In this document: in pieces, positions 10,745 through 52,043 of the stretch
How the letters are laid out: each line of letters starts with the position of its first letter
Position numbering within the stretch: position 1 is the first letter of the stretch
Origin: Thermoanaerobaculia bacterium
Lineage (GTDB): Bacteria > Acidobacteriota > Thermoanaerobaculia > JALWYX01
DNA: 64,000 nt
Assembly (NCBI GenBank): GCA_027078415.1
Contig: JALWYX010000034.1
Span: forward strand, 60,423 to 124,422
Direction: 5' to 3'
Program-made: the position numbers and the translations under genes
The notes under the pieces: model-generated
What the model was told of the DNA's origin: nothing
Seen by the model: the letters and a program-made list of their open reading frames with translations, nothing else
Database searches by the model: none

Positions 10745-10836
10745 TGGCGGAAGCGGATGGGAATCGAACCCACCTTCTTCTCTCGAAGAACATCGGTTTT
10801 GAAGACCGAGAGAGGCACCAGCCCCCTACCGCTTCC
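10745..10836 (-). tRNA. selC: tRNA-Sec (selenocysteine tRNA, anticodon UCA)
   Basis: Reverse complement reads GGAAGCGG-TA-GGGGGC-TGGT-GCCTCT-C-TCGGT-CTTCAAA-ACCGA-TGTTCTTCGAGAGAAGAAGG-TGGGTTCGATTCCCA-T-CCGCTTCC-G-CCA. This gives an 8-bp acceptor stem, a 6-bp D-stem with 4-nt loop, a UCA anticodon in a 7-nt loop, a long variable arm and encoded CCA; 92 nt in total. Confidence 0.85.
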
Positions 10837-27916: not shown

Positions 27917-28863
27917 TAGTTACCCACAATTCAGCTCCAGATATTGCTAAAGCTCTACAACATCTATATTCGCAAACTCTAAAGCCCAAAACTACTGTAA
28001 TTGTGGATTCGGGCAGTAAAGATAACACTATACCTATTGTGAAAACTCTTCAATATACCAACTTGAAGGTAATAGAACTACAGAATAATGTAGGTTTTGC
28101 TTCGGCACTTAATATAGGAATAGAAAATACAGATTCTCCATGGATACTTTCTTTGAATCCTGATACTCGTATGGAGATACTATACAGCGAGAATATACTA
28201 AATGCGCTTAGCTATTATAGATACGACAGAATCGCATCTGGTACTGGTAGACTAGTTAGATTGGAACAAACCAACATCTTAGACTCTTGCGGAATATACA
28301 TAAATCCAACTTGGCGTCACTTCGACAGAGGTAGCAATAAGGTTATATCTCACTCTTATATACAACCTGGATTTGTATTCGGTGCCACTGGTGCAGCCAG
28401 TTTTTACAATAGAGAAGCGTTAGAAGACGTACAGCTTGAAAAGAGTAAATTTGACCCTTTGTTTCATTCATACAGAGAAGACGCTGAAATAGCCTTTAGG
28501 TTGCAACAGAGAGGGTGGAAAACTGTATATATTCCCTACGCTGTATGTTACCACCGCAGGCAAGTACTACCTGAAAAAAGATCTAAATTATCAAAACATA
28601 TAAACTATCACTCCTTAAAAAACAGGTACCTTCTACGCTTATATCACCAAACCTTTACAAACCTGATTTTAACTTTGCCTATAATCTTACCGCGTGAAAT
28701 AGGGATTGTACTATATTTAATATTCAAAGAGCGCAACAGCTTAAAAGCTTATAGATGGTTATGGAACAACAGAAAGTTGATAATAGAGAGAAGAAAAGAG
28801 ATAAAGAGCAAAAAGCTAATTTCCTTTAACAAATGGTTTTTCAGACGCATATTACCTACTTAA
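27892..28863 (+). CDS. Glycosyltransferase family 2
   Basis: YSVVIVTHNSAPDI...VIVDSGSKDNT...DxD-type region. Confidence 0.75.
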   Translation: MERDYSVVIVTHNSAPDIAKALQHLYSQTLKPKTTVIVDSGSKDNTIPIVKTLQYTNLKVIELQNNVGFASALNIGIENTDSPWILSLNPDTRMEILYSENILNALSYYRYDRIASGTGRLVRLEQTNILDSCGIYINPTWRHFDRGSNKVISHSYIQPGFVFGATGAASFYNREALEDVQLEKSKFDPLFHSYREDAEIAFRLQQRGWKTVYIPYAVCYHRRQVLPEKRSKLSKHINYHSLKNRYLLRLYHQTFTNLILTLPIILPREIGIVLYLIFKERNSLKAYRWLWNNRKLIIERRKEIKSKKLISFNKWFFRRILPT

Positions 28864-30198
28864 AACATTGCTATTAACAACTCTTTTCTTAAAATTGTTA
28901 TTTATTGCAGTCTGCTTATTAAGATTTTCAAACATTTCGTTACACTTAGAAGAAAGCACTTCACACAAGTTTCTATTCTCATCAAAATCGTTTCTCAAAT
29001 CGTAAAGTTCCTTCTCTAAACCACCTATAAATTTCCAGTTTCCTACAATCAGAGAAGCACTATAGTTACTTACGCTTCTAGACTCTGCTAATATAAAACG
29101 ATCACTATCAGAAAAACTTACAATAGTTGGGATTAAAGAGATTCCTTGAAAAACTATCTCTTTTTTATCTATTCCTAAAATATCTAACAAAGTAGGTGTA
29201 ACATCTATAAGAGAAACATTTGTAGGTATCTTTTTAGTTCCAACTTTAGGTATATAGATAAACAGAGGAACATGTAACGTTTCATTGTAAAGTTGAGAAT
29301 GTAAAAAGTTACCATGTTCACCAAATTCTTCACCATGGTCCGAAGTAAAAACTACTACCGTTTTAGGAAATTTATCGATAACTTCTTTAAGTAAAGGCGC
29401 AATTTTCTCAAGGGTATATCTGACTAGAGCATCGTATAAAGAAATAAGTCTGCGTACATCAAGTTCGTTAGACAGATTAAATTGGTTCCAAAACCTATCT
29501 CGTATCTCAGGAAAACTGATAATCGATGAATTCAATTTTCTGAATTCTTTCCAGCTTACCACGAAATTGTTTTTATCTTTCCAAAAGATATCTAACCCAT
29601 CCTCCGGTAAAAGGTAAGGATCGTGCGGACCGTAAGTATGGAAAAAAAGAAAAAAAGGTTCCTTTGCATCGTTTAACCATGCTAAAGCTTCTTTTACATA
29701 ACCCCATCTATCGTAACGTTTAGAAGGTTGTCCTTTATTCAGATAAAAGTCAAAACCTCTGTTAAAGCCAAAAATGCCTGATACGTTTCCTCCGCCGTGA
29801 AATCCTACCGTAGTATACCCTGCATCTTTAAGTATCTCTGCTATAGTGGGTAGGTTACCGTTTATAACTGTTTGTTTACGAAAGTAACGTGTTATATTTC
29901 TAACTCCATGTATTTCAGGATAAACACCTGTAAACAAAGACGCGTGGGAAGGAGCTGTAAAGGGTGATGGTGCAAAAGCTCTTTCGAAAATTACACTTTT
30001 TTTTACAAAAAAATCTATCACAGAAGAAGTATCTCTAAAGTAGCCATATTGCGACATATGCTTCGCTGCAAGGGTATCTACAGATACTATAACTACATTG
30101 CATCTTCTACATTCTATTTCCTCGGAACTTCTACAATTCCACAAAAGAAAACTAAAGATAACCAAGAACTTCCAGCTCTTTTTTAAGATCATCGTCAA
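28852..30198 (-). CDS. Sulfatase-family (alkaline-phosphatase superfamily) lipoprotein S1, non-canonical nucleophile
   Basis: VIVSVDTLAAKH metal-site motif. FTAPSHASLFTGVYPEIHG in place of CxPxRxxxLxTGxYPxxHG. TSDHGEEFGEHG metal motif. Signal peptide. Confidence 0.75.
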   Translation of the reverse strand: MTMILKKSWKFLVIFSFLLWNCRSSEEIECRRCNVVIVSVDTLAAKHMSQYGYFRDTSSVIDFFVKKSVIFERAFAPSPFTAPSHASLFTGVYPEIHGVRNITRYFRKQTVINGNLPTIAEILKDAGYTTVGFHGGGNVSGIFGFNRGFDFYLNKGQPSKRYDRWGYVKEALAWLNDAKEPFFLFFHTYGPHDPYLLPEDGLDIFWKDKNNFVVSWKEFRKLNSSIISFPEIRDRFWNQFNLSNELDVRRLISLYDALVRYTLEKIAPLLKEVIDKFPKTVVVFTSDHGEEFGEHGNFLHSQLYNETLHVPLFIYIPKVGTKKIPTNVSLIDVTPTLLDILGIDKKEIVFQGISLIPTIVSFSDSDRFILAESRSVSNYSASLIVGNWKFIGGLEKELYDLRNDFDENRNLCEVLSSKCNEMFENLNKQTAINNNFKKRVVNSNVLSR

Positions 30199-31588
30199 TC
30201 TCTAAAACTTTTCCTTTACCACCACCGCTAACGCTACTCAATATCTCTTTTAGCATCTCTTGCAGTAAATCAACAATCCCCGGGTGTATAGAACTTACAT
30301 CTTTTTTTTCTTTAGGGTCGGTTTTTAGGTTGAAAAGTAGGCGTTTATCCTCACCCCTAAGGATAAACTTAAACAAGCTTTTGTCCACTACAGCTACAGA
30401 ATCTGGACCGTAAGCAGGTGATTCTATGAAGACTAACTCTTTTTTTTCGCAAAACCCCTCCTCTAAAAAATTCGCACCTCTCCATCTACCAACTTTAGGC
30501 AGGTTCAAAATTGCGGCCAATGTAGGCATTATATCTATGTGACTTACTATGCAGTTTACATTTCTTCTGTTTATACCTTTCCCACCAATCACTATAACAC
30601 TACGGACAAGCTCTTCGAACATAGTATGCCCGTGACCTATACCGTAAATATTCCGCGGATCGTCTTTCCAACGCCACTGTAGATCTACATGATCCCAAAA
30701 TTCTTCTCCATGGTCTGTAGTAATTAAAAAGATAAAATTATCAGCTATTTTACTTCTCAAAAATAGGAAGAGACGCCTTATTTCACTGTCTACATACCTA
30801 AGTGTAGCATCGTAAAGCTTTATTTTATTACTCTTGTATTCGATAAACTCTTGGTCCGCAAAGTTAAAAATCTCACCAAACCTCCAACCAGCATACTTTT
30901 TGGCGTCATCTATTGCAAAAAGCTTCACAAACTCCTGAGGTGGTTCCAAAGGATGGTGTGGATCCATATACTGAATGTACAGGAAAAACGGTTGCTCAAC
31001 CTTATCAACAGCATCTATAGCAAGATCTGTGAGTTTCCTAGCGGAGACTCTTTTAGAAAAGTGAAAATCCGTAGCAGGAGCAAAATTTTTATTCAAATAG
31101 GGATTAGCGGAAAAAAATAGTGAACTGTAACCGTATTTTTTAAAATACTCGGTTGCTAAAACCACCTCTTCCAAAGGTTGTCTACTCTTATCTTTTATAC
31201 CCAACCAGCGCATCTTCCCTCTCTCACCAACACCTGCTCCATGTTCCGAAGGATACAGAGAAGATAGTATAGAAGCAACAGACGGAACTGTCCAATTAGA
31301 ATGGGAATATACACGTTCAACTATCACAGAATTGGCGGCGATAAAATCTATATTGGGAGTCGTATCTCTCATATAGCCCATAAAAGAAAAATGATCGTAC
31401 CTAGCAGTATCTATTACAACAACTATTACATTTGAAGGTCCCTCTTTCTCTTTACTACTTTCGGAGGGTTTGTGGCAGGATAGTAAAAAAAATGGAAAAA
31501 ATAAATAGAAAAGGAGGTGGAAAAATCCACCTCCTTTCCTAAGAACTTTTCTAGATCTTTTACGGCATTCTATAAGCCTCAAATTCAT
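30152..31588 (-). CDS. Sulfatase-family lipoprotein S2, non-canonical nucleophile
   Basis: Lipobox LLSC. VVVIDTARYDHF. WTVPSVASILSSLYPSEHG. TTDHGEEFWDH. C-terminal tail ...LKKELEVLGYL. Confidence 0.75.
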   Translation of the reverse strand: MNLRLIECRKRSRKVLRKGGGFFHLLFYLFFPFFLLSCHKPSESSKEKEGPSNVIVVVIDTARYDHFSFMGYMRDTTPNIDFIAANSVIVERVYSHSNWTVPSVASILSSLYPSEHGAGVGERGKMRWLGIKDKSRQPLEEVVLATEYFKKYGYSSLFFSANPYLNKNFAPATDFHFSKRVSARKLTDLAIDAVDKVEQPFFLYIQYMDPHHPLEPPQEFVKLFAIDDAKKYAGWRFGEIFNFADQEFIEYKSNKIKLYDATLRYVDSEIRRLFLFLRSKIADNFIFLITTDHGEEFWDHVDLQWRWKDDPRNIYGIGHGHTMFEELVRSVIVIGGKGINRRNVNCIVSHIDIMPTLAAILNLPKVGRWRGANFLEEGFCEKKELVFIESPAYGPDSVAVVDKSLFKFILRGEDKRLLFNLKTDPKEKKDVSSIHPGIVDLLQEMLKEILSSVSGGGKGKVLEIDDDLKKELEVLGYL

Positions 31589-32201
31589 CCAGATAGTACG
31601 TTACAGCTCCATTGACCTGTGCTGCTGGATTTTGTACAAGGCCAAATCTAAAGTAATCTATGTCGAATGCGCTCGTTGCTAAATTGTTTTTACAAACCTC
31701 TTTATAACTTGGGGTAAGCCTACGCACACATACAAATCCATCTCCATTTCCAGCTCTCCACTCTACTTCAAGCTGATGAGTCTTTGGTGAATTATCAAAA
31801 GACAACCAAACACCACCTACAAAAGTAAAATTACCACTATTCTGTCTAGCCCAAACGTTAAATCTATACGTTCTGTCACCGTCATTTTCTAGATCATGCC
31901 TAAGAAAACCCACTAAAAATACAGCAGGTGCTACATCACGTGCAAAATAAAGTATTCTTAAAGAGCTATCATCTTTTATATTAGTAGCATTTTCAGCACG
32001 TAACATAAATCTAACCTTTACGTGCGTTTCGTTGTTAGGAGCATTTGTTTCCACATACGCTTTATCAGAGGAAGTCCCATCCAGATTAATCTCCAAACCA
32101 TAATTGCCTTCCAACGCAGAGGTATTCGTAACACTTAAAGTGTTTTGCGCCCCTAGAGGCAAAGTAAACAACGCTATCATACCTCCTACCTTTTTCCACA
32201 T
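31560..32201 (-). CDS. Hypothetical secreted protein embedded in the hydrolase cluster
   Basis: Signal peptide MIALFTLPLGAQN. Beta-rich composition. No motif recognised. Confidence 0.5.
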   Translation of the reverse strand: MWKKVGGMIALFTLPLGAQNTLSVTNTSALEGNYGLEINLDGTSSDKAYVETNAPNNETHVKVRFMLRAENATNIKDDSSLRILYFARDVAPAVFLVGFLRHDLENDGDRTYRFNVWARQNSGNFTFVGGVWLSFDNSPKTHQLEVEWRAGNGDGFVCVRRLTPSYKEVCKNNLATSAFDIDYFRFGLVQNPAAQVNGAVTYYLDEFEAYRMP

Positions 32202-32266: not shown

Positions 32267-33658
32267 TTAAGAATGCTCGTCTAATATCTTATCTGCTTTG
32301 TTTATAGCTTCTTTTAACTCCTCACTTTTCAAAGACGCTTCTTTCTTAATAATCTCTAGAAGATCTTTTTTAAGAGAATCTATAATACCTTTTCTATCCT
32401 CCAACGTAACCGATCTATCCAACTTGTAGAGATTACTCTTACCAGAAGAGAACGAAAAACTTAGGAAAAAAGGCAAATTAATTATAACAAACCTATCAAA
32501 TAGAGTGGAATCATATTCAATACCAACGACTTTTCGTGCAGCAAAAGCTGAAAGTGCACTTCGTTCATCCCTTAAAAGTGGAAGGAAACTTTTTCCATCT
32601 ATATCGGAAAATAGATCTACTCCTAAATAATCTTCTATAAAAGCGGCAATATCTGCATGAGACACCAGAGCATCTACTTTTTTACCCTTAAATTCAGCGT
32701 TTGGGAACCTTATAACCAAAGGAATTTTAGCAACAGACGGAGACAATTGATAATGACTTAAACTTCCGTACTCACCAAACTCTTCCCCATAATCGGCTGT
32801 AAAAATAACAACAAATTTCTCTAACCAACCATCTTCCCTCAACCACCCAAAAAAATCTCCCAATCTCTTATCTAAATAGTCCACCTGGGCCTTGTAAACA
32901 GTTTTCAGAGCAGCAAGAGCATCTTTAGAAAGTTTTCTTGTCCTGTAAAATTGAAGCCATTTATCCGCACACATACCTTTGAAACAAAACATATCCTCTT
33001 TGATTTTCAATTTCTCCTTTAACGATGGAGGTAAAAAATAAGGTAATTTATTACCATTAGCTGGCGGATCAGGAGCGAGATCACTAATTTGCATAAATAT
33101 GAACAAAGGATCGCTTCTATTTTCATGGAAATCGATTATCCTGACAGTTCTATCAACTATTGAGTCCACATGTATAAACTCACGTTCAGAATCCCTGTAA
33201 ACCGTAAAACCACCTATAAGACCAGATTCTGGACTCAAAAAAGGAGTCGAATAAAAACCGACTGTTTTATACTGAAGATCTAAAAGTTTATGAAAAAACT
33301 GTCTCACATAATTGTTCGATCCCTCAGGAATAGAATTTATAATGCCATGGCGCAAAGGACTAAGTCCAGTAAATAAAGTTACATGTACAGGTAAAACATG
33401 ATTAATTTGAGTATAGAAGTTAGTAAACTCCACACCTTCACTAACCAAAGACTTATATACAAAAGTATTCTTGGCATAATCGAAACTGAACGAGCTAACA
33501 GAAATAAGCAATATATTAGGGTACTCTTCTACTTTTCCAAAAACGTCTAATGATGAAGGAATTACAGTAGATGAACTATTTTCCTTGCTATCTTGGGGAA
33601 AAATGTTACAACCGCTCAAAAATATTAAACTAATGAGAAATAAGCCTTTCAATTTCAT
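32267..33658 (-). CDS. Sulfatase-family lipoprotein S3 with degenerate active site (probable pseudo-enzyme)
   Basis: Lipobox LSGC. Metal motifs degraded (ISVSSFSFD instead of DTxRxD; TADYGEEFGEYG instead of DHGEEFGEHG). Val at the nucleophile position (HVLPVHVTLFTG). Confidence 0.65.
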   Translation of the reverse strand: MKLKGLFLISLIFLSGCNIFPQDSKENSSSTVIPSSLDVFGKVEEYPNILLISVSSFSFDYAKNTFVYKSLVSEGVEFTNFYTQINHVLPVHVTLFTGLSPLRHGIINSIPEGSNNYVRQFFHKLLDLQYKTVGFYSTPFLSPESGLIGGFTVYRDSEREFIHVDSIVDRTVRIIDFHENRSDPLFIFMQISDLAPDPPANGNKLPYFLPPSLKEKLKIKEDMFCFKGMCADKWLQFYRTRKLSKDALAALKTVYKAQVDYLDKRLGDFFGWLREDGWLEKFVVIFTADYGEEFGEYGSLSHYQLSPSVAKIPLVIRFPNAEFKGKKVDALVSHADIAAFIEDYLGVDLFSDIDGKSFLPLLRDERSALSAFAARKVVGIEYDSTLFDRFVIINLPFFLSFSFSSGKSNLYKLDRSVTLEDRKGIIDSLKKDLLEIIKKEASLKSEELKEAINKADKILDEHS

Positions 33659-35099
33659 TTATAAAACACTCCACCCCCAATCCTTTATCGGTGACATCTA
33701 GTAGTACTTCTTGTAAAGTTGCAGCTCCTCGAGAATGAACCTTTTTCCTTAGCCAATCGAGCAGAACGGAAAACTTTCCCTCCTGAAAAGTTTCTTCCAA
33801 ATCGGTTATTTCTTTACGAGCCTGATTATAAAACTGAGCAGCGGACAAAGATCCTAGGGTGTATGTAGGAAAGTAACCAAACAAACCTGCAGCCCAATGA
33901 ATATCCTGTAATACCCCTTCACTTACGTTCCCGGGAACAACACCAACTATCTCTTTGTATAGTTCATTCCATCGCGTAGGTAATTCTTTTACTGTCAAAT
34001 TTTCGTTTATAAGCTCTTTTTCCAGGAGATAACGAACAAAAACGTGTAAATTGTAACTTACAATATCAGCTTCCACTCTTATAAGAGAACGTTTAATCTG
34101 ATTTACATACTTAACCCATTCTTCTATTCCTCCTTCCAGAAAAGGAAAAAGTTCTTTTAATTTATAGAATCCCCAACTCCAGAATTCTTTTCGTCTTCCC
34201 ACGAAATTTTCCCATAGTCTAGACTGTGACTCATGTAATCCTAAAGATATAATCTTACCCAAGGGAGTATAAAACAGAGACTCATCTATGCCCAGCTCGT
34301 ATAAGGCATGTCCAGCTTCGTGTAAAACACCAAATACTGATGACCTGAAATCGTTTTTCCTGTATCTAAAAGTTATACGAACATCGCAAGGGGTAACCGC
34401 TATACACATAGGATGAGTAGATAAATCTAATCTGCTGTCTGTCTCTAATCTTAAGCCAACAGCGCTAGCAAAAAAGGCAGCTGCCTCCCATTGCTTATCT
34501 GGAGAATATTCAAAAACAGAATATTTATCTGAAGCAAAATTAGTTTCATATTTATCAAGCAAACTGTAAGTCTTGGGAATAAGTCTTTCAAAGACTGAAT
34601 CTATAACCTTTTCTGTAATTCCAGGCTCAAATAAATTAAGCAGAGCTTCGTATAAAGAAGTATCATCTTGTTTAAGACAACTAGCTTCCTCTTTTTTAAG
34701 TTTCAGTAAATTGTCTAGCTCTTTTTCAAAAATAGAAAAATCGCCTTCTTTTCTTGCTAATTTCCAAGCTTCTACGGCTAAAGTGGTAGAATAGGCTAAC
34801 GATGTACGTACTTTAGCAGGAACCTTAAAATATCTATCAACCACAATACGAGCCACTCGAGCATGCCTAGCAAACTCTTTACCTTCTTCCTCTATACTGT
34901 CCAAAAGTTCAACAAAATAAGGATCTGTCACAAGCGTATACAAAACACTGTTTAAATGTGCAATTATTTCTGCACGTTGGGAAACAGCTCCTTTAGGCAT
35001 ATATGTCTCTTGATCCCACGCAAAAAGTGCTAGAGCAGATTCTAAAGAGGATATCTTTTTCCACCTTCTAAAGAACTCTTCTCTTAACTCTTTTGTCAT
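33630..35099 (-). CDS. M32 family carboxypeptidase (carboxypeptidase Taq-like)
   Basis: HEAGHALYE zinc motif and full-length M32 architecture. HESQS and IRVEAD family motifs. Confidence 0.9.
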   Translation of the reverse strand: MTKELREEFFRRWKKISSLESALALFAWDQETYMPKGAVSQRAEIIAHLNSVLYTLVTDPYFVELLDSIEEEGKEFARHARVARIVVDRYFKVPAKVRTSLAYSTTLAVEAWKLARKEGDFSIFEKELDNLLKLKKEEASCLKQDDTSLYEALLNLFEPGITEKVIDSVFERLIPKTYSLLDKYETNFASDKYSVFEYSPDKQWEAAAFFASAVGLRLETDSRLDLSTHPMCIAVTPCDVRITFRYRKNDFRSSVFGVLHEAGHALYELGIDESLFYTPLGKIISLGLHESQSRLWENFVGRRKEFWSWGFYKLKELFPFLEGGIEEWVKYVNQIKRSLIRVEADIVSYNLHVFVRYLLEKELINENLTVKELPTRWNELYKEIVGVVPGNVSEGVLQDIHWAAGLFGYFPTYTLGSLSAAQFYNQARKEITDLEETFQEGKFSVLLDWLRKKVHSRGAATLQEVLLDVTDKGLGVECFINEIERLISH

Positions 35100-36488
35100 T
35101 TACAAATACCCCAAGGCTTTTAACTCTTCTTCTACATCTCTATCGAAAGAGTAAAATCTAGCTCTAGGCCAAGCACCATAAATTCTGTCTCTTTTTATCA
35201 TAAGTCTAATAAGTTCTTCTTTTACAGAATTTTTCAACATAGCAGCGTTTCTCTTATCTATCTCGGCAATGTCATGCAACTCCTTAGGATCCTTCATAAG
35301 GTTAAATACCTTAACCCTATCAGTCCTAGGATCGTATTTAACAGAGTAAGGAAAATCTATTATAAAAAAACTCCACCTGTTGTATACATGGGCAGTACCT
35401 ACAATTTTCCTTTTAACCTGATTTTTACTGAGAAGTGAAAATAGAGAAAGTCCATCAAAGGCAACCGGGTATTGCAAACCTAAATAATCTAAGAAAGTAG
35501 GAACTATATCAGGTAGCCAAACCGGTGTATCTACTATCTTAGGAGCATCGTTGTCAGGAGTTATAAGCATCATGGGTATAGCTATTGTTTCGATGAATGG
35601 TTGTGAATGACCAAAATATTTATGTTCCTTAAACTCCTCACCATGATCCGAAAAGATAATAATTATAGAGTTTGAGAATAGATTCCATTTCTCAAACAAA
35701 TCGAAAAGCTTCGCTAACTGGCTGTCAAGAAAGCGTACACCTCTTCTATAGATTTCTTCCACCAATTCAACCTTTTCCGGTTTAAGTGGAATAGCTTCTT
35801 CCCTTACAAGCCGTAACCAGCTATCAGCACATCTGTTGTACCTACAAAAGGTACCTTCTTTTATAGGTAGATCCTTTCTATATGAAGGAGGAGAGTAGTA
35901 AGGTAACGTGTTCCCGTCTCTTCCTTGAGGATCAGAATGAGCATCCATAAAATGGATAAAGGCAAAGAAAGGAACTTTTTCCTCAACTGCTGCTCCCAGA
36001 TAATTGGAAACCTCCTCTAATATAGCTTCCGAAGGAACAAGTTTAAACCGTATTGGAATAAAAACGTCAAATCCTTTGTGGAATCCACCTTCTCGACCCA
36101 AAAGAGCATTAGAATGTATAGCAATGGTTGTGTAACCTTTACTTTTTAAAATTTCAGCTATAGTAGGTATGGAAGGCGGTAAAGCTCCAACTTTTACTTC
36201 CAATATAGAATGTACAATCGAAGACATACCAGTAAAAGCAGACATATGCGAAGGAACCGAGTAATGAGCTGTTGAGAATGCATTCCTGAAAACTATCCCT
36301 TTACGTTCCTCAAAAATTCTCTTTATATTGGGCATATCCAAACGAGGACTCCCTACAAGCTCACCCCAGCAATCACGCCTTACAGTATCCAAAGATATCA
36401 ATATAACGTTCTTCTTTATCTCAGACCTACATCCAAATAACAAAACCAAAAATAACAAAACCACTTTCCTTCTCATCACGCGATCCAA
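35100..36488 (-). CDS. Sulfatase-family lipoprotein S4, non-canonical nucleophile
   Basis: Lipobox LLFGC. ILISLDTVRRD. YSVPSHMSAFTG. FSDHGEEFKEH. C-terminal tail ...EEELKALGYL. Confidence 0.75.
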   Translation of the reverse strand: MDRVMRRKVVLLFLVLLFGCRSEIKKNVILISLDTVRRDCWGELVGSPRLDMPNIKRIFEERKGIVFRNAFSTAHYSVPSHMSAFTGMSSIVHSILEVKVGALPPSIPTIAEILKSKGYTTIAIHSNALLGREGGFHKGFDVFIPIRFKLVPSEAILEEVSNYLGAAVEEKVPFFAFIHFMDAHSDPQGRDGNTLPYYSPPSYRKDLPIKEGTFCRYNRCADSWLRLVREEAIPLKPEKVELVEEIYRRGVRFLDSQLAKLFDLFEKWNLFSNSIIIIFSDHGEEFKEHKYFGHSQPFIETIAIPMMLITPDNDAPKIVDTPVWLPDIVPTFLDYLGLQYPVAFDGLSLFSLLSKNQVKRKIVGTAHVYNRWSFFIIDFPYSVKYDPRTDRVKVFNLMKDPKELHDIAEIDKRNAAMLKNSVKEELIRLMIKRDRIYGAWPRARFYSFDRDVEEELKALGYL

Positions 36489-36712: not shown

Positions 36713-38161
36713 TTATTTATATCCTAACGCCTCTATAGCTCTCTTTTCCATCCTATCCAGTTCATCCAAAAATTGAGGTTCAGTGACAGCAAGTAACTTT
36801 TTACGCTTCTCTAGTTTAACACTTATCTCAAGATCCAATCTTTTTTTCAAGTTATCAAGCAAATCCTTAAAAGATTTGTCGCTAGCCAAATTATTCTGTT
36901 CCATTCTATCGCTACTCAAGTCAAAAAGTTCTACCAACCCATCATCTTTAATAATCAGATGATAAGGATAAACAATCATAGATCTAAAGTTCAAATTTTC
37001 CTTTTTATGTCCTAGAATAGCAACATCGCGTTTGGGCGTTATACTCTCTATCCAAGGTATCAAACTTTCCCCATCCAACTTTAGGGGAAAATCGTATGTA
37101 ATATTTAGGTAATCCAATATGGTAGGCAAAATATCTTCATGCCCTACAGGTATCTCTATCACCTTTCCTGCCCATCTATTTTTAGGAAACTTTATCAAAA
37201 GAGGAACATGAATATTTTCTACGTAAGGTCTATTGTGTAAAAAAGAACCGTGCTCACCAAACTCTTCACCGTGATCGGCTGTTATTATTACAAACATATC
37301 ATCCAATAAACCTTCAGCATTCAAATATCCAAACAGATCTCCTAACCTCTCGTCTAAATAAACAGCTTGCGCTTCGTATAAACGTTTCATTTTTACAACA
37401 GTACTTTTAGGCAACTTAATGCCTTTTTTTACAACTTCTAACAACCATCTACTAGCACACAGCTCTTTCCAACAAAACTCGGACCTATCAACTTTTATAT
37501 CTTTTCTGTAGGGAAAATAAGAATAATAGGGCAGAAAATTTTCAACTCCCACCATATCTTTATCGAAATCTGAGTGCAGATCCATATAATGTGCAAAAAT
37601 AAATAGTGGACTATCTCCGTACCCCAACCGTGATCTTTCAGATAGAAGATAGGAGATAGAATCGTTTATTCTTTGAGCAAAAGTAAGTCCTCTACCTATA
37701 TCCATGTAAAAGTCAAATCCCTTAGCAAAACCATATCTAGGTCTTAGAAAATAGTTGTGGTAAAACCCAAATGTCCTATAACCGTGTGTTTTCAAAATTT
37801 GAGCGATAGTTGGTATATTTTGCAACAAAGCAGGACCTCGCTCAGCATAAATAACTCCATGAACATAAAAAGACAACCCTGTAAACATGGACATATGAGT
37901 TGGAAGTGTAAAACCTGTAGCAGCATAGACGTTTAAAAAATTTACACTCATATTACTGATATCTTGCAATCTAGGCATAAGAGAATTATCACGGAAAAAA
38001 TGCCACAGATCGGCTCTCATCGTATCTATGGAGATAAACAGAATATCGGGGAGTTTTCCACGAGTACTCTCTATCTCTTCTAATTGTTGCTCATTCATAT
38101 GCTCCGCAAAACATCCGTAAAAAAGAACCACAAAAACTAACAAACACCTCCGAACTCTCAT
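36713..38161 (-). CDS. Sulfatase-family lipoprotein S5, non-canonical nucleophile
   Basis: Lipobox LFYGC. LFISIDTMRAD. FTLPTHMSMFTG. TADHGEEFGEHG. C-terminal tail ...AIEALGYK. Confidence 0.75.
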   Translation of the reverse strand: MRVRRCLLVFVVLFYGCFAEHMNEQQLEEIESTRGKLPDILFISIDTMRADLWHFFRDNSLMPRLQDISNMSVNFLNVYAATGFTLPTHMSMFTGLSFYVHGVIYAERGPALLQNIPTIAQILKTHGYRTFGFYHNYFLRPRYGFAKGFDFYMDIGRGLTFAQRINDSISYLLSERSRLGYGDSPLFIFAHYMDLHSDFDKDMVGVENFLPYYSYFPYRKDIKVDRSEFCWKELCASRWLLEVVKKGIKLPKSTVVKMKRLYEAQAVYLDERLGDLFGYLNAEGLLDDMFVIITADHGEEFGEHGSFLHNRPYVENIHVPLLIKFPKNRWAGKVIEIPVGHEDILPTILDYLNITYDFPLKLDGESLIPWIESITPKRDVAILGHKKENLNFRSMIVYPYHLIIKDDGLVELFDLSSDRMEQNNLASDKSFKDLLDNLKKRLDLEISVKLEKRKKLLAVTEPQFLDELDRMEKRAIEALGYK

Positions 38162-38502: not shown

Positions 38503-39816
38503 TCACTCTTTCAACGTAGCAGCAGTGTAAACAACCGTAGCGTAGAAAGCGGTTATATTTTGTAAGTTTTCTTGTTGTACTTTATCAAAAGTATCATTTT
38601 CGGTATGGTGATAATCGAAATAGAAAGTTGAGTCAGGTGTTATATCAATAAATTGAACACCTCTATCTCTAAAGAAGGATATATCTGCACCACCTCTTCC
38701 TTTCTCTTCAACCCATTTTACGTTGTATCTTTTAAGAATACGTCTTATAGACTTTAGCACCTTACCTACTAAGCCTTTTTTTTCACCTCTTATTTTAAAT
38801 ACTTTCCCCAATCCAAAATCAGCTTCAAGAGCTAAGATATGAGGATCATCCTTGTGCCTATCAAAGTAATCGCGAGCCCCATCCAACCCAAATTCTTCGT
38901 TGTTAAAAAGCACGAATCTAACGGTCCTATTTAGTGAATAATTAGCAATATAACACGCAGTAGCCAAAACTGTTGCTACTCCTATACCATCATCTATAGC
39001 TCCTTCTCCCACATCCCAAGAGTCTAAATGAGCACCCAACAAAATAATCTCTCTACTTTTCCCTTCTATCTCTCCTAGCACATTGTAAGCAGTTACAGGA
39101 GCAAGTTGCCGTGAAGAGGAAAATATTTTTACACGCGGTATACTATCTTTCAACCTTCTTAGAAGATCTGCGTCAGCAGGTGCAAGTGCTATTGCAGGTA
39201 ATCCGTCTGAATAACTAATTGCAGTTATACCTGTATGTGGAAAACGATCATAACCGGTACCTGCTGACCTCATAAGATAGGCTATAGCGCCTTTTTCCAA
39301 AGCTATTTTTGGCCCCAGCCATCTCGTGCGAGAACCTTCCCTATAATCGGCACCGTTTCTTTTTCTTCTCATAACAAAATCTACAAAAACTATCTTTCCC
39401 GATATAGCATGCTCGGGAGCCTCTTTTAGCTTTTCCAAAGAGTCAAAATAGACCACCTCACCTTCTATACCTTCTTTTGGGGTACCACTACTACCTCCCA
39501 ATTCTATAGCTATAAGTTTTCTTTCAACCGGAGCTATTAGAGCAACTTCTAGTTTTCCCCTTACCCATCGTGGAGCTATAAAATCTTCTTTCCAAACTTT
39601 TACTCCACAATCTTTAAAGACCTTTTCAGCCCATAAAACAGCTTCTACATTCCCTTGGCTTCCAATGAATCTAGGGCCTATCCTTGTCAATTGCTCAAGG
39701 AAAATGAAAGATTTGTTGTCATTTACAACTGTGTAGAAAAATTTCTCTATCTCTTTTTGCAAACCATATACGTTAAATGATAAAAATAAGATAAAAGCTA
39801 AAAAAAACGCTCGCAT
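38503..39816 (-). CDS. M28 family peptidase (second copy, with PA-like insert)
   Basis: GAHLDSWDVGEGAIDDGIGVA and NNEEFGLDGA M28 motifs. Start set at the MRAFFLAFILFLS signal-peptide Met; the ORF-track start at 39879 would overlap the divergent gene. Confidence 0.75.
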   Translation of the reverse strand: MRAFFLAFILFLSFNVYGLQKEIEKFFYTVVNDNKSFIFLEQLTRIGPRFIGSQGNVEAVLWAEKVFKDCGVKVWKEDFIAPRWVRGKLEVALIAPVERKLIAIELGGSSGTPKEGIEGEVVYFDSLEKLKEAPEHAISGKIVFVDFVMRRKRNGADYREGSRTRWLGPKIALEKGAIAYLMRSAGTGYDRFPHTGITAISYSDGLPAIALAPADADLLRRLKDSIPRVKIFSSSRQLAPVTAYNVLGEIEGKSREIILLGAHLDSWDVGEGAIDDGIGVATVLATACYIANYSLNRTVRFVLFNNEEFGLDGARDYFDRHKDDPHILALEADFGLGKVFKIRGEKKGLVGKVLKSIRRILKRYNVKWVEEKGRGGADISFFRDRGVQFIDITPDSTFYFDYHHTENDTFDKVQQENLQNITAFYATVVYTAATLKE

Positions 39817-39840
39817 TTTCTCAATTATAGGTGATAAACG

Positions 39841-40959
39841 ATGATAGAAAAAGTGGAAAAAGTGCTCGAAGAACTTCAAAAAATAGCTTTAGAAAAAATA
39901 AAAATCTTAGGTAAACCGATACCCAAAGGCGAACTATTTCTCACATTAAATATTGCACTTTCAGGATCACGTGAACACCTTCACAACGAAGCAATCAACT
40001 TAACAAAAATTATAGACGCTGAGATAAACGATCTTATAGCACATATGGAAATGCTTCCTGTGGGTAGGATACACTGCTTGAAGTGTAACACAGCCACCTG
40101 TGAACACTCTGCACCTACTAAAAGAAGAGAAGTGTTTGTAGGATATAAACCCAATGGTACTCCAGAGTTTAGAGACCTCACCCAAGCACTCCTAGATAAA
40201 GGGCATCCGCAGACCCACAGACTATTTGAAAAAAAACCACCTATTTTGGCTCTTGCTATAAAACCACAAAATTTATTCTCAAACTTGCTACCGGGCTTTA
40301 AACCGTGGGAATCTATGAGAATACACGGTGCTGTTATATGTGGATGGTTCATAGACAAAGAAGGAGAGAAAAACGGGATTACTTTCCTGCTGGTTTCCTC
40401 AGGTACCAAAAGATCGAGAAGAAAATTTTACTTGCATACTATAAACCTCCTAGCAGCAAAAGCGGAGTTAGATAAGTTGTTGCTTACAAACGGCACTTTC
40501 AGATGGGACCAACCTCTTCAATGGAGTAAGAAAATGTTAAAAATCATAGAAGCTGATCTAAGAAGCAATACTCTAACCAAAGCTTTTATCAAAAAGATCG
40601 AAGCTAGACTGAACGGTGTTCTTGACAACTTAGCGTTACGGTTAGAAAAAATAACTGAGAAGGAAACACATTATACAAAACATGCAGTAGAACGCAAATC
40701 GGCTAACAGACCTGTATCCCAAGCATTTTTGGACCTCAAAAGTGCAACTGTCGACTGGAGTTTCTACGATGATACTGAGAAAAGCATAGTAATAGTAGGA
40801 CCTAAGTCGAGAGTACACATATTTTCTCCCAACGGTAAACTGATAACTTCAATACGATACTCATCTGAAGCTATTCAGAGAAAGATAAGAAGCGGAAAAT
40901 GGCAAAGGATTTCTCTACAACAACTGAACGAATTAAAGAAAAATGCAATTAGGAATTAA
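39841..40959 (+). CDS. Hypothetical protein translationally coupled to a UbiB/ABC1 kinase
   Basis: 372-aa ORF with no recognised motif apart from a C-x2-C-x4-C-x-H cluster. TAATG overlap with the next gene. Confidence 0.5.
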   Translation: MIEKVEKVLEELQKIALEKIKILGKPIPKGELFLTLNIALSGSREHLHNEAINLTKIIDAEINDLIAHMEMLPVGRIHCLKCNTATCEHSAPTKRREVFVGYKPNGTPEFRDLTQALLDKGHPQTHRLFEKKPPILALAIKPQNLFSNLLPGFKPWESMRIHGAVICGWFIDKEGEKNGITFLLVSSGTKRSRRKFYLHTINLLAAKAELDKLLLTNGTFRWDQPLQWSKKMLKIIEADLRSNTLTKAFIKKIEARLNGVLDNLALRLEKITEKETHYTKHAVERKSANRPVSQAFLDLKSATVDWSFYDDTEKSIVIVGPKSRVHIFSPNGKLITSIRYSSEAIQRKIRSGKWQRISLQQLNELKKNAIRN

Positions 40960-47423: not shown

Positions 47424-49346
47424 CTATTCACCTCCTCGTCTCTTATAAAGCGAGATTATAAAAGAAGACACTTCTTCCAAAGATTTGGGATACTCTTTCA
47501 TCTTTTTATTTGAAAAGAACACTCCAGGTACACTACCAGGATCCATACAATGATCTCCACTCCACTCATCCCTATTTATCTCTACCACTTCCTTACCAAA
47601 CCCTCCAATAGCAGTTTTATCGGAAGATCTATAGGTTTTAGCGTACCCAACTATCATATCTGGTCCTTTAGCAAGATACTCTCTATTAAACGTTCTCTCC
47701 GTTATATCGACTCTTGTAACAACTCGTTCTCCATTAAGAGGGTTCTCAAAAGCGAGTAACTTTTGCTTTATCTCTTCTAGAATCTTCATCTTCTCTTCGG
47801 GAGGAACTATACCGTGCTTTTCTCTACCTTTTACATTTATGTACAAACCGTTGAGACCTAAAGAGTAGGCCTTAGTTCCATTCCAATCTACATTAACAAA
47901 GTATCCGGGATCTCTAGCAAGAACGCTTTTATTTTTAACCTTTAGATAACCTTCCTCAAGCAACCAATTGTTAAGATTAACAGCGTACCTCCAACTGGTA
48001 AAACCGTGGTCAGAAAGGACTATCAAAGTATCATTCTCTTTCAAATTTTCCAACACAAACCCTATAAGTTCGTCAAACTTCCTGTAAAGGTCTGGAATAA
48101 CATGAGCATATTTACTATCTATTTTCTCGTTGTAAGCCGGATGTTCTGTATCTATAGCTCTCCACATTATATGAGATACCTGATCCAAGTTACCAAAGTA
48201 GTAAAAAAAGAAACCACCTTTAACTTGCGGCAAAATAATTTTGAACTGCTCTATAAGTTCATCTCCAGCGACCTTTGCTTGCTTTAAAAACTCATCTCGT
48301 GTAAATACACCTTCGGTTATAGCCTTGGTATCTTCAGGCATACCTTGCGTATAGAACCTACCTGTAACTCTCGCCAAATTTACAGAAAATTTCTCAGGTG
48401 TAGATATAGGTAAGATAGGATTGTAGGGATCGATGTTTACAGGTGAAGCGTAAAGCTCTAGCTCCGGACGCACGCTCCTTAAGTAAAAACGCACCATAGC
48501 AGGGAGCTTCTGGAGAGGAAGCAAATCAAAACTAAACGGAATCCACTCACTGAATTCACCAGGTTTAAGCACTACCGCAACGTTATCTATAACAACTGTA
48601 ACAACATCATCTATAGGATCTGGATATATAACAAATTTTTTCTTTACTGTAGGATCGTCTGTTAGTTCCGGGTCCAAAAAAGGATTTGGTGGACCGTAAA
48701 GATAAGCTTCTATTTTACCGTCCTCCTCGTAAACTTCGTATACCTCTCCTCCAGAGATCTCTTTACCTGCAAAAGCGAATAACCTAGTTGTATAAAAAGA
48801 GAAAGTTCCATAAGTACCAATCACATCGGGAGTCCCCATTCCCGATAACTCGAAAGAAGCAGTAGATGAAGGAGGAAAATTTGCAGGCATACGTAGTATA
48901 AAAGTCTTTATACCCGAGTTCTCAAGTTTTTCCCAAAATGGAACCCCATATCGTAGAAGTTCAACCTTACCAGAAGAGATAGGTAACCTGTATTTACCTA
49001 TAGAGAAATATTTACCCTCTACACTACGGCTAGTAGAAAGATAGGGAGTCATAGTATCAGGATTTCTATGGATAAAATCAAATATACCATGTCCACCAGG
49101 ATCTAGGCCGGTTATTACACTAGACCAAGCAACTGGGCTTTGAGGTGGAATTGAAGTAGCTAACGAAGAGAAACTACCCTCCTTAGCCAACCTCGCAAAA
49201 TTTGGCAGTTCACCAGTTTCCATAAGCTGCTTGGTTAAAGAATAATCCATACCATCAATTCCTATCACTATAACCCGTTTATATCTCTCCTTCACACAAC
49301 CAAAAATAACAAATAAGCAAGTAAAAAGAACGTACCTTCTTATCAT
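47424..49346 (-). CDS. NPP / type I phosphodiesterase-nucleotide pyrophosphatase-like lipoprotein (AP superfamily) A
   Basis: Lipobox IFGC. VIVIGIDGMD. SPVAWSSVITGLDPGGHGIFDF (NPP-like nucleophile loop). SDHGF. WSGDHCMD. Confidence 0.75.
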   Translation of the reverse strand: MIRRYVLFTCLFVIFGCVKERYKRVIVIGIDGMDYSLTKQLMETGELPNFARLAKEGSFSSLATSIPPQSPVAWSSVITGLDPGGHGIFDFIHRNPDTMTPYLSTSRSVEGKYFSIGKYRLPISSGKVELLRYGVPFWEKLENSGIKTFILRMPANFPPSSTASFELSGMGTPDVIGTYGTFSFYTTRLFAFAGKEISGGEVYEVYEEDGKIEAYLYGPPNPFLDPELTDDPTVKKKFVIYPDPIDDVVTVVIDNVAVVLKPGEFSEWIPFSFDLLPLQKLPAMVRFYLRSVRPELELYASPVNIDPYNPILPISTPEKFSVNLARVTGRFYTQGMPEDTKAITEGVFTRDEFLKQAKVAGDELIEQFKIILPQVKGGFFFYYFGNLDQVSHIMWRAIDTEHPAYNEKIDSKYAHVIPDLYRKFDELIGFVLENLKENDTLIVLSDHGFTSWRYAVNLNNWLLEEGYLKVKNKSVLARDPGYFVNVDWNGTKAYSLGLNGLYINVKGREKHGIVPPEEKMKILEEIKQKLLAFENPLNGERVVTRVDITERTFNREYLAKGPDMIVGYAKTYRSSDKTAIGGFGKEVVEINRDEWSGDHCMDPGSVPGVFFSNKKMKEYPKSLEEVSSFIISLYKRRGGE

Positions 49347-51343
49347 TGCTTCAACAAACTTTTACCATCTATAAACGCAGGAATAGGCACAGCGAACATA
49401 TCTAGTATAGTAGGAGCTAAATCGATTATATTGCACTCCTTACTCTGGAGTTTTAAATTTGTCAACATAATACCAGGAATAAGTTTAGGATCTATACAAT
49501 GATCACCGCTCCAGGCTTTCACATTATCTTCTACAATATCTCCTTTAACCACCCCTCTAGCACCATTCCAAGAAACACGGTAGCCTTTGTTATATCCAAC
49601 TATCAAATCTGGAGCATTATCAACATATCCACCCCAGTAACACTCGGAAGTATCGTAAACTTTGCTAATAACTTTCTCACCTTCATATTCTAAGTTCTCC
49701 AACTTCTTTATTATCTCTTTTTTGATCTTCTTAGCTTCATCTCCGGGATCTACTATTCCATGTGCTTCTCGACCTTTGATATTTAGATATATACCCGCTA
49801 ATCCAAGAGAGTAAGCAACCGTTCGAGACCAATCAACATCTCTAAGCCACTCCCTTTCACCGCTATATTTCTCTTTGACACACAGATAACCTTCCTGCAA
49901 CAGCCACGCGTTAAGGTTTATACCCTTTCTAAACGAGTTAAAGCCGTGATCTGAGATGACAAACACAAAATCCCCCTCCTTCATCTTTGCAAGGAGCTTA
50001 CCCAATATGCGGTCGTTATTACGGTATAACCTTTCTATAGCATCACTTTTTTTTCCTTTCGGATTTGCTGGATGATTATAATCTATATAACGCCAAAACA
50101 TATGTTGTATCCTATCGGTAGCATCGAAAACGGCAACCAATACTCCTTGATCCAAATCATCTAAAAGAGAAAAGAACTGCTCTTCTCTCTCTTTATCTAT
50201 ATCAAACACCATTTGCAAGAATGTATCGTCATCTATAACCTTCTCATTCAACGCCCAGGTATCCTCAGCTAAACCTAAAGTAGCGTATTTACCCAATTTA
50301 TAGCGTAAATAAGGAGCAAAATAATTTGGATGCGAAATAGGCATAGCAGGCCTTTCAGGATCTATATTCAAAGGAGTAGAGTAGAGAAATATATCATCTC
50401 CTTCCCTAAAGAAAAGAAGACGAGTTATCGCAGACACTTTAACACCGGGCAGAAGTCTATACCTAATATCAACCCATTCGCTCAACTTACCTTCCTTTAG
50501 AAACAGAGACTCCCTATTGAAATGTATGTAACAACCTTCATCGTACAGTTCTAACGTAAAAGGCAACTTAACCTCTTCTTGAGAGACCTTAAATATATTA
50601 GGTACTCCAGGAAACTCACCTCTGTACAAACCGTTCTTTACCTTTATAAGTCTCTTACGTATACCTCCTTCTTCAAATTTTCCATCTTCCTCGCTTGAGG
50701 AAAATAATATAAATGTACCCTGTGTTCCAAGAATATCAGGAACACTCATAGCGGAAAGTTCTACTCCAAAAAATTGATCCGGTGGAAAAGTAATAGGGAC
50801 CCTTAATATAGAACTCCATACACCGTACTCACCCAACGTTACCCAGAACGGCTTTGACTTACGCAACAATTTCAATTCAGGCTTACCTAGAGGAATCCTA
50901 TATTTTCCCACTCTTAAAAATCTACTAATATTACCTATTTTCGAAGAAGATATAACAGGAAGATAGCTCTTAGGATCTCTAGATAGAAAATCGTATATAT
51001 TATGTTTGCCCGGATTTGTTCCTGTGGAAAAGGAAGACCATGCAACAGGAGAAATAGCAGGTATGGTAGTCCCTAGTTCAACAAAACAACCTTCCTTAGC
51101 TAACTTAGAAAAATTGGGTAATATACCTTGATCCATAAATTTACGAGTAAGTTCAGGGTCTTGACCATCGAACCCTAAAACTATAACCCTTCTAGCTAAA
51201 GGTTTACCCTTTCTCTTTGGAAGGGTAAAATATCTATATAGTTTTTTAAATGGCCAGATAAGCAGCGACAAAATGGCAACTATGAGAGTTATAACAACCG
51301 CGAAAAGAGAAGAAACTAGGGCAAAGCCTGCCCCAGGTCCCAC
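49343..51343 (-). CDS. NPP / type I phosphodiesterase-like membrane-anchored protein B (start uncertain; ORF is open up to 51667)
   Basis: RVIVLGFDGQD. SPVAWSSFSTGTNPGKHNIYDF. SDHGF. WSGDHCID. One or two N-terminal TM helices. Candidate starts are GTG 51343 and ATG 51499/51559/51667; the longer forms overlap the divergent sulfotransferase gene. Confidence 0.65.
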   Translation of the reverse strand: MGPGAGFALVSSLFAVVITLIVAILSLLIWPFKKLYRYFTLPKRKGKPLARRVIVLGFDGQDPELTRKFMDQGILPNFSKLAKEGCFVELGTTIPAISPVAWSSFSTGTNPGKHNIYDFLSRDPKSYLPVISSSKIGNISRFLRVGKYRIPLGKPELKLLRKSKPFWVTLGEYGVWSSILRVPITFPPDQFFGVELSAMSVPDILGTQGTFILFSSSEEDGKFEEGGIRKRLIKVKNGLYRGEFPGVPNIFKVSQEEVKLPFTLELYDEGCYIHFNRESLFLKEGKLSEWVDIRYRLLPGVKVSAITRLLFFREGDDIFLYSTPLNIDPERPAMPISHPNYFAPYLRYKLGKYATLGLAEDTWALNEKVIDDDTFLQMVFDIDKEREEQFFSLLDDLDQGVLVAVFDATDRIQHMFWRYIDYNHPANPKGKKSDAIERLYRNNDRILGKLLAKMKEGDFVFVISDHGFNSFRKGINLNAWLLQEGYLCVKEKYSGEREWLRDVDWSRTVAYSLGLAGIYLNIKGREAHGIVDPGDEAKKIKKEIIKKLENLEYEGEKVISKVYDTSECYWGGYVDNAPDLIVGYNKGYRVSWNGARGVVKGDIVEDNVKAWSGDHCIDPKLIPGIMLTNLKLQSKECNIIDLAPTILDMFAVPIPAFIDGKSLLKQ

Positions 51344-51386
51344 GTAAGCAAAAGAAACGTTAGGAAAAAGGAGAAAAATAAACAAA

Positions 51387-52043
51387 ATGAACAGAACAAA
51401 AGAATATACACGCCCATTTTCGTTAACCAGAAAGCTACTTTTCGGGAAACCTATAATAGTGGTATCAGGATTACCCCGCTCAGGAACTTCAATGGCCATG
51501 AAAATGCTTCGTGATGGGGGATTAGAAGTAGTATCGGACAACAAGCGTAAAGCTGACATAGATAATCCAAAAGGATACTTCGAATATGAACCTGTCAAAG
51601 ATATCCACAGATCGGGGCAAAACCTGAAATGGCTAAAAAAAATACGAGGCAAAGGTATCAAAATCATCTCCTTCCTCTTACGTTATCTACCCGATAATAA
51701 CAATTACAACATAATATTTATGCAACGCGATCTCAACGAGATCTTAGTTTCTCAAGCCAAAATGCTTCATCGTAGGGGCGAAGAACACTCTATCCCTGAC
51801 GAAAAAATGATGGTTTTCTGGAAAGAACACCTCGAACAGATATTCTTTATAATGCACCATCGCCCCTCTTTTCGCTTTATAGTACTAGATTACCTAGACG
51901 TTATTCAAGACCCTCGAAGCGCAGCTAAAAAAATAGAATCTTTCCTCAATATAGACCTAGACATAGACAAAATGGCAGAAGCAGTTTCACCAGAACTTTA
52001 CCGAAACAGAAAAGAAAATTTAATAAAAAGCACAAAAGGTTAA
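51387..52043 (+). CDS. Small sulfotransferase-family protein (PAPS-dependent, Sulfotransfer_3/Stf0-like)
   Basis: 5'-PSB-like loop VVSGLPRSGTSM near the N-terminus. 3'-PB-like IIFMQRDLNEILVSQ. AGGAG RBS upstream of the ATG. Confidence 0.6.
   Translation: MNRTKEYTRPFSLTRKLLFGKPIIVVSGLPRSGTSMAMKMLRDGGLEVVSDNKRKADIDNPKGYFEYEPVKDIHRSGQNLKWLKKIRGKGIKIISFLLRYLPDNNNYNIIFMQRDLNEILVSQAKMLHRRGEEHSIPDEKMMVFWKEHLEQIFFIMHHRPSFRFIVLDYLDVIQDPRSAAKKIESFLNIDLDIDKMAEAVSPELYRNRKENLIKSTKG

Follow-up and report, generated by a model that had tools for sequence, protein, structure and literature searches.

Can a gene that has lost most of the catalytic residues of its family still be kept by selection, and if so, as what? 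The question is raised by a 64,000-nt stretch of DNA (hereafter the window) from Thermoanaerobaculia bacterium (Acidobacteriota, lineage JALWYX01; assembly GCA_027078415.1, contig JALWYX010000034.1, positions 60,423 to 124,422), which carries five genes matching the PF00884 "Sulfatase" family. These genes (S1–S5) lie on the same strand and are interleaved with an M32 carboxypeptidase gene and an orphan gene, u213. Coordinates below are those of the window, and the features of the array lie on the minus strand. S3 (32267–33658) is an uninterrupted open reading frame (ORF) of 463 codons, encoding a sulfatase-fold lipoprotein with a degenerate active site; its PF00884 score is 65 bits, against 113–147 bits for the other four paralogs. 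The domain match, together with an alpha/beta core and a C-terminal subdomain, places S3 within the PF00884/alkaline phosphatase superfamily fold. A sequence-only reading of this DNA had described S3 as a pseudoenzyme, a catalytically degenerate paralog retained within a hydrolase array, and the present analysis supports that description: three of the four core positions and further pocket histidines have been lost, the coding sequence looks maintained, and the predicted fold is confident. We put at roughly 70% the probability that S3 is a lineage-specific duplicate of S1 that lacks the ancestral metal-dependent ester chemistry and has been selectively kept as a folded, exported lipoprotein.

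Replacement of active-site residues in S3

Aligning S1–S5, the check that the sequence-only reading had proposed, bears out the motif losses that it reported, and a 23-sequence alignment agrees with the five-way alignment at both metal-ligand motifs. The DTxRxD motif is replaced in S3 by SSFSFD (residues 55–60; 33479–33496), with Asp changed to Ser55, Thr to Ser56, and Arg to Ser58, and with Asp60 kept; the equivalent residues are DT[MVA]R[ARY]D in S1, S2, and S4, and DTLAAK in S5, which keeps the Asp-Thr pair only. The DHGEEFGEHG motif is replaced by DYGEEFGEYG (residues 289–298), as part of the segment DYGEEFGEYGSLSH (residues 289–302; 32753–32794) in which the metal-ligand His has become Tyr290 and a further His has become Tyr297, while Asp289 and His302 are kept. 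The corresponding sequences are DHGEEFGEHG in S1 and S5, DHGEEFKEHK in S2, and DHGEEFWDHV in S4. At the nucleophile position, which is Thr in S1, S4, and S5 and Ser in S2, S3 carries Val88, as had been claimed; in 148 of 155 homolog domains, Thr occupies this column. The surrounding VLPVH (residues 88–92; 33383–33397) stands in place of T-x-P-S-H, with Ser also changed to Val91 and His92 kept.

Several further changes had not been reported previously: the substitutions S91V, H190Q, and H195A, and the disappearance of [LIVMA]GY from the C terminus. The two histidine losses fall within QISDLAPD (residues 190–197; 33068–33091), which replaces HxxDxHSD; the near-invariant column of residue 195 is His in 154 of 155 homologs and Ala in S3. 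Of 173 homologs, 151 have the [LIVMA]GY motif, as do S1, S2, and S4; it is absent from S5 and from S3, which ends in ...KILDEHS. Relative to the catalytic signature of the Thr-type clade (DTxRxD / TxPSH / HxxxxH / DHGEEFxEHGxxxH), 9 of 16 positions in S3 are substituted. The residues retained are D60, P90, H92, H104, D289, E292, H302, and the Cys225/Cys230 pair.

The family-wide standing of these changes was assessed with a profile hidden Markov model built from 44 close members, to which 213 domain matches from 178 sequences (160 of them near full length) were aligned. Across 155 homolog domains, the core columns are close to invariant: Asp40 in 147 of 148 non-gap sequences, Thr81 in 148 (with Ser in a further 2), His187 in 154, Asp286 in 154, His287 in 154, and His299 in 153. 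At model columns 40/81/187/286/287/299, S3 carries Ser, Val, Ala, Asp, Tyr, and His, and further changes appear as Thr41Ser, Arg43Ser, Ser84Val, His182Gln, and His294Tyr (model columns). Counting the three metal ligands and the nucleophile as the core of the metal site, S3 is alone among the 160 near-full-length domains in being substituted at three of these four positions; other apparent losses of at least two core positions reflect N-terminally truncated fragments. One candidate for a second degenerate member, P0028, was rejected as a genuine Cys-type sulfatase (DD...CAPSR...DNG...K).

HMMER alignments of S1 and S3 to solved PDB chains of sulfatases and phosphonate monoester hydrolases place these positions within characterized active sites. 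The Asp that opens DTxRxD matches the metal-ligand Asp on beta-1, and the Thr/Val88 column matches the Cys/Ser of the formylglycine motif (CGPSR in 4upk, for instance). The DH pair corresponds to the DH or DN pair of the metal site, and the His that follows downstream (His302 in S3) to the catalytic Lys. Spacing is alike in EfAS (9koq) and the family model, with 41 residues from Asp to nucleophile, 4 from nucleophile to Arg/His, and 12 from DH to Lys/His. In EfAS, the substitutions D20N, C61A, D311N, and H312A each abolish activity toward esters of phosphate, phosphonate, and sulfate, and activity is minimal in H220A (PMC12421950). Judged by motif spacing and the HMMER alignments, S3 is substituted at the equivalents of D20, C61, H312, and H220. 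Valine is incapable of acting as a nucleophile, and every alkaline phosphatase superfamily enzyme known to us depends on a Ser, Thr, or formylglycine bound to metal. Because residues equivalent to those essential in EfAS are substituted and Val88 is not a nucleophile, S3 has very likely lost the ancestral catalytic chemistry. It falls within the definition of a pseudoenzyme as an enzyme-family homolog without residues essential for catalysis.

Origin and probable maintenance of the S3 gene

In a neighbor-joining tree, S3 is sister to S1 (36713–38161), an intact paralog that keeps 10 of 10 near-invariant active-site columns, with bootstrap support of 89/100; the wider grouping of S1, S2, and S3 is weak (46/100). 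The terminal branch of S3, at 0.985, is the longest or near-longest in the tree, against 0.545 for S1 and a family median of 0.52. Tajima's relative-rate test with S2 as the outgroup assigns 70 unique changes to S3 and 32 to S1 (p = 1.7e-4), a twofold acceleration. The canonical residues are present in S1, in S2, and in every outgroup, which places the origin of the degenerate states on the S3 branch.

Searches for relatives recovered a very large family and no ortholog of S3. At E ≤ 1e-10, 9,324 representative proteins match S3, yet an exhaustive HMMER search of 1.84 billion representative proteins returned nothing more than 33% identical; the best non-self matches were P0034 (28%) and the paralog S1 (33%), which together with P0035 are the closest relatives. 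A word-indexed search of 5.8 billion proteins found S3 itself only, the next match being 27% identical; a scan of GTDB species genomes found no ortholog, and an exact look-up of contigs encoding S3 gave no match. The search for a positional ortholog through the adjacent M32 gene recovered no syntenic relative, its nearest homologs being 41–45% identical and from unrelated phyla, and all matches to the RelA/SpoT protein of the window are at most 40% identical and scattered over phyla. On this protein-level evidence (M32 ≤45%, RelA/SpoT ≤40%), the host lineage is isolated, with no close sequenced relative. S3, S4, u213, and M32 each form singleton clusters.

Membership of S3 in the Thr-type clade is marked by an insertion that it has in common with its relatives. 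S3 carries LPYFLPPSLKEKLKIKEDMFCFKGMCADKW, including the Cys225...Cys230 pair (FCFKGMCA; 32969–32986); this subfamily-specific insertion is common to S1, S2, S3, and the closest homologs, and the top matches of the exhaustive search all carry an LPY...FC...CA insertion with two Cys residues.

It is conceivable, though in our estimation improbable, that S3 is a neofunctionalized enzyme whose remodeled pocket (Ser55, Ser56, Val88, Tyr290, and Tyr297, with Asp60, His92, Asp289, Glu292, and His302 kept) supports a new reaction, or the use of a new metal, without a Thr nucleophile. The retention of several pocket residues is consistent with this, as is the clear maintenance of the ORF, and the accelerated S3 branch suits adaptive change as well as it does relaxation. 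However, Val88 cannot be a nucleophile, and both His-to-Tyr changes require a single C-to-T substitution (CAY to TAY), the cheapest route in a genome of 36% GC, which looks more like relaxed constraint than design. The set of residues in S3 is also unmatched among the 160 family domains, which gives no indication that a new active site has become conserved.

A slightly smaller chance attaches to S3 being a young pseudogene, its function lost and its sequence decaying without having yet acquired a stop codon or frameshift. The long terminal branch (0.985 vs. a median of 0.52) is what such decay would produce, as are mismatches at conserved non-catalytic positions (P59F, G121Q, T337F, and D406S, in model columns), the lost C-terminal LGY motif, and the absence of an ortholog. 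Against this, the losses in S3 are concentrated at the active site. Among family columns at least 90% conserved, divided into active-site (10) and other (21) positions, S3 retains 4 of 10 and 17 of 21, respectively (one-sided Fisher p = 0.03), whereas S4, which is overall at least as divergent as S3 and catalytically intact, retains 10 of 10 active-site columns and only 13 of 21 others. The structural near-invariant columns are thus kept better in S3 than in S4. The nine altered active-site codons of S3 differ from those of S1 at 18 of 27 nucleotides, and therefore imply a long divergence time between the two genes; drift of equal extent across the whole gene would have left a clear trace. When unconstrained substitution was simulated on S3, amino-acid divergences of 20%, 40%, and 60% gave means of 6, 11, and 16 in-frame stops, and none of 200 runs was free of stops at any divergence level.

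Codon usage and gene features point the same way. The synonymous-codon score of S3 is 0.151, as compared with 0.155 ± 0.034 for 41 ORFs of the window and with −0.05 and 0.04 for the wrong frames, and GC content declines from the first to the third codon position (GC1 > GC2 > GC3) as in neighboring genes. The ORF is intact, as is the Cys225/Cys230 insertion, and the AlphaFold model predicts the fold with confidence. The lipoprotein signal and overall length are conserved, as the sequence-only reading had held: the signal peptide MKLKGLFLISLIFLSGC (33608–33658) is intact and, by inspection, has an n-region Lys, a hydrophobic h-region, and an L-S-G-C lipobox (Cys17) typical of bacterial lipoproteins, and the protein has 463 amino acids (aa) in an array whose members range from 448 to 482 aa. 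A Shine-Dalgarno-like GGTGGAG (33669–33675) lies 10 nt before the ATG, within the 3′ end of the M32 gene. Column retention, depth of divergence, codon usage, and intact features together support the conclusion that S3 is not a decaying pseudogene.

Several points nonetheless weigh against S3 as a selectively kept pseudoenzyme. The enrichment of losses at the active site is only modestly significant, p being 0.03 for columns at least 90% conserved and about 0.1 once the threshold is relaxed. What a single genome reveals may also be compatible with inactivation in the very recent past, such as by loss of expression. With no ortholog in the databases searched, a ratio of nonsynonymous to synonymous substitution rates (dN/dS) cannot be computed, nor can the degenerate state be shown to be conserved. 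Finally, the kept Asp289, His92, His302, and Asp60, along with the two new Tyr residues, may leave room for a different chemistry.

That the unusual residues are an assembly or sequencing artefact, or come from a chimeric contig, is scarcely credible. The source is a single genome, and composition points neither way. However, a separate Logan assembly from run SRR14510437 (possibly the source data of the window itself) matches the window at 100% identity for 8,778 nt, taking in S3 codons 1–130 with both SSFSFD and VLPVH; the changes involve nine or more codons, many of them differing by 2–3 nucleotides, with the frame undisturbed; and neither GC content nor codon usage breaks from that of the neighboring genes. 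This 8.8-kb Logan contig (L001) is the only other occurrence of the window's DNA that was found; it was rejected as an independent strain, being the same DNA at 100% identity. A literature search for the run accession found no paper that mentions it.

Possible roles and genomic surroundings

If S3 is a pseudoenzyme, as we favor, it would have arisen as a lineage-specific duplicate of the neighboring S1. Phospho- or sulfo-ester chemistry would have been lost through replacement of two of the three side-chain metal ligands (Ser55, Tyr290) and of the nucleophile (Val88), accompanied by second-shell replacements of Arg by Ser58, Ser by Val91, and His by Gln190, Ala195, and Tyr297. Such a protein would be unable to form a covalent phospho- or sulfo-enzyme intermediate and would probably not bind the catalytic metal; selection would keep it as a folded, exported lipoprotein acting non-catalytically at the cell envelope. 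The leftover pocket (D60, H92, H104, D289, E292, and H302) may hold a ligand related to the family substrate. Alternatively, S3 may pair with an intact paralog, either its sister S1 or the co-operonic S2. The substrate-binding or scaffolding role put forward by the sequence-only reading is plausible.

Pairing may be considered because solved relatives are oligomers, from dimers to octamers (PMC12421950), because two-domain fusions recur in the family, the first domain of one of them being partly degenerate, and because S3 is apparently co-transcribed with S2. Two near-full-length domains are fused in P0034, P0067, P0095, and P0143, and split partial matches occur in P0111, P0113, and P0137; in P0095, domain 1 is partly degenerate (T81R, H85L, H187D, and E289T) and the second domain is intact. 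More generally, several two-domain fusions of the family have active-site substitutions in one domain and an intact other domain. We raise only tentatively, as a minority prospect, that S3 joins S1 or S2, as a subunit without catalytic activity, in a phosphoesterase or transferase that is heteromeric and anchored at the surface, and that it provides substrate binding or regulation, so that the array would hold an enzyme–pseudoenzyme pair. Fused two-domain homologs, P0095 included, would then represent a covalent version of the same partnership.

The arrangement of genes bears on this prospect. S2 (35100–36488), an intact paralog whose nucleophile position is occupied by Ser, abuts the gene for the M32 (Taq-type) carboxypeptidase (33630–35099; PF02074, E = 8.5e-141), the 3′ end of which overlaps the start of S3 by 29 nt; the carboxypeptidase itself has no N-terminal hydrophobic segment and no lipobox. 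The 65-nt spacer between S3 and u213 is unstructured. The orphan u213 (31560–32201; 213 aa) has a strong Shine-Dalgarno sequence AAGAGGAGG and a putative N-terminal signal peptide, and is followed 19 nt past its stop by a terminator-like, perfect 16-bp hairpin with a U-run (31506–31541; −30.8 kcal/mol, z = −6.0). This packing suggests that S3 and the intact S2 are transcribed together, in a putative S2-M32-S3-u213 unit that begins with S2 and ends at the hairpin. No Pfam or NCBIfam match to u213 was found, nor any homolog among 5.8 billion proteins; a single-sequence AlphaFold2 model predicts an all-beta structure at low confidence (predicted local distance difference test score, pLDDT, of 42).

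By motif and column analysis, the remaining members of the array are S4 (30152–31588), divergent with an intact active site, and S5 (28852–30198), which is intact. The hairpin at 31506–31541, with AAGGAGGTG in its 5′ arm, sits inside the region of the S4 ORF that codes for the S4 signal peptide RKGGGFFHLLFYLFF. As a terminator or attenuator it may limit expression of S4 and S5; alternatively, the start of S4 may be mis-assigned. For S1, the public protein (NCBI/ENA; P0030, 461 aa) begins 21 codons inside the ORF and lacks the signal peptide and FYGC lipobox, both of which are included in the Logan call (P0029, 482 aa). The public annotation of S1 is probably truncated at the N terminus.

An M28 peptidase gene (38503–39879) lies upstream of the array. 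Downstream are genes for a Bac_transf initiating sugar transferase and for GT1 and GT2 glycosyltransferases; P0035, the closest homolog from outside, adjoins MBOAT, AlgX-like, GT2, and nucleotidyltransferase genes. This context suggests an involvement in envelope glycan metabolism.

Genes for exported esterase-like proteins and for peptidases (M28 twice, an M16 pair, and M32) are plentiful across the window. A second cluster comprises three PF01663 (NPP/phosphodiesterase) genes on the minus strand (47424–49346, 49343–51667, and 52502–54046), all with a DHG motif. An ORF of 218 aa with sulfotransferase domains (PF13469, PF00685; 51387–52043, plus strand) shares about 280 nt with the 5′ end of the 774-aa PF01663 ORF at 49343–51667, which is read from the other strand; one of these two ORFs probably has an over-extended start. 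A selenocysteine tRNA gene (10749–10836, minus strand) was identified by ARAGORN, with anticodon TCA, and by the Rfam tRNA-Sec model at 77.3 bits; its presence indicates that the organism probably uses selenoproteins.

The array family and its relation to known systems

The S1–S5 array does not, by its motifs, consist of sulfatases in the strict sense, the nucleophile being Thr or Ser and not formylglycine. In place of C/S-x-P-x-R, the intact paralogs have T/S-x-P-S/T-H (or a -V end). S3, with V-L-P-V-H, likewise departs from the C/S-x-P/A-x-R signature of formylglycine-dependent type I sulfatases (SulfAtlas S1), and keeps one of the four positions of their metal site (Asp, nucleophile, Asp-Asn/His), at which it has Ser55, Val88, Asp289, and Tyr290. 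Under the SulfAtlas classification, PF00884 proteins with Thr replacing Cys/Ser cannot count as sulfatases (PMC5066984). The term "hydrolase array" used previously is therefore a fair one for Thr/Ser-type paralogs, as "sulfatase array" would not be.

None of the five paralogs can be assigned to a specific NCBIfam family, all scores being far below cutoff. The likeness of the intact paralogs to the phosphotransferases LtaS, EptA, and MCR-1 consists of an acidic residue, a Thr nucleophile, an Asp-His pair, and a His 12 residues past the DH; we take this Asp / Thr / Asp-His / His+12 signature to be the ligand set of those enzymes. Motif spacing, the weak NCBIfam matches, and these presumed active sites suggest phosphoryl rather than sulfuryl chemistry for the intact paralogs. 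Proteins of the array would thus be annotated as sulfatases, yet probably act on phospho-esters.

If S3 is indeed a maintained dead paralog, it constitutes a natural experiment in a very large, uncharacterized family whose members are labeled sulfatases in databases despite having Thr instead of formylglycine. A non-catalytic copy, if still able to bind substrate, could trap and reveal the substrate of the family. S3 also serves as a warning for metabolic reconstructions, as a PF00884 match is not always an active sulfatase. Degenerate paralogs are common in enzyme families, and S3 is so far confined to a single genome.

Among known systems, the best sequence and fold matches are to the arylsulfatase/phosphonate monoester hydrolase group (EfAS, 9koq; RlPMH, 2vqr; SpPMH, 4upk; SpAS1, 4upi). 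The likeness extends to the two-subdomain architecture, and the metal site of these oligomeric enzymes is of the D...nucleophile...D-H type, its fourth ligand being a His; however, identity is only 15–20%, and that group derives formylglycine from C/S-x-P-x-R, whereas the S1–S5 family has T/S-x-P-S/T-H and S3 has V-L-P-V-H. By descent, S3 belongs to the Thr-type "sulfatase-like hydrolase/transferase" clade (DTxRxD, TxPSH, DHGEEFxEHGxxxH, LGY), from which it differs in lacking both the catalytic signature and the LGY tail; a literature search on threonine-nucleophile sulfatase-like proteins found nothing characterizing this clade.

Literature searches of the "pseudosulfatase" type found no bacterial precedent. 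The comparison that comes to hand is with the periplasmic domain of PbgA/YejM (LapC) of Enterobacteria, a precedent that is itself debated, because YejM has been reported as a metalloenzyme (PMC7576196). S3 is not homologous to PbgA/YejM at the family level, scoring 38.5 bits against NF038282 (cutoff 825) over residues 233–341 only, and it is a lipoprotein without the five-helix membrane domain of that protein. The degeneration of S3 is an independent, recent event in a different clade, and S3 is an independent, lineage-specific case of a well-known phenomenon, the dead-enzyme paralog, in a poorly studied clade.

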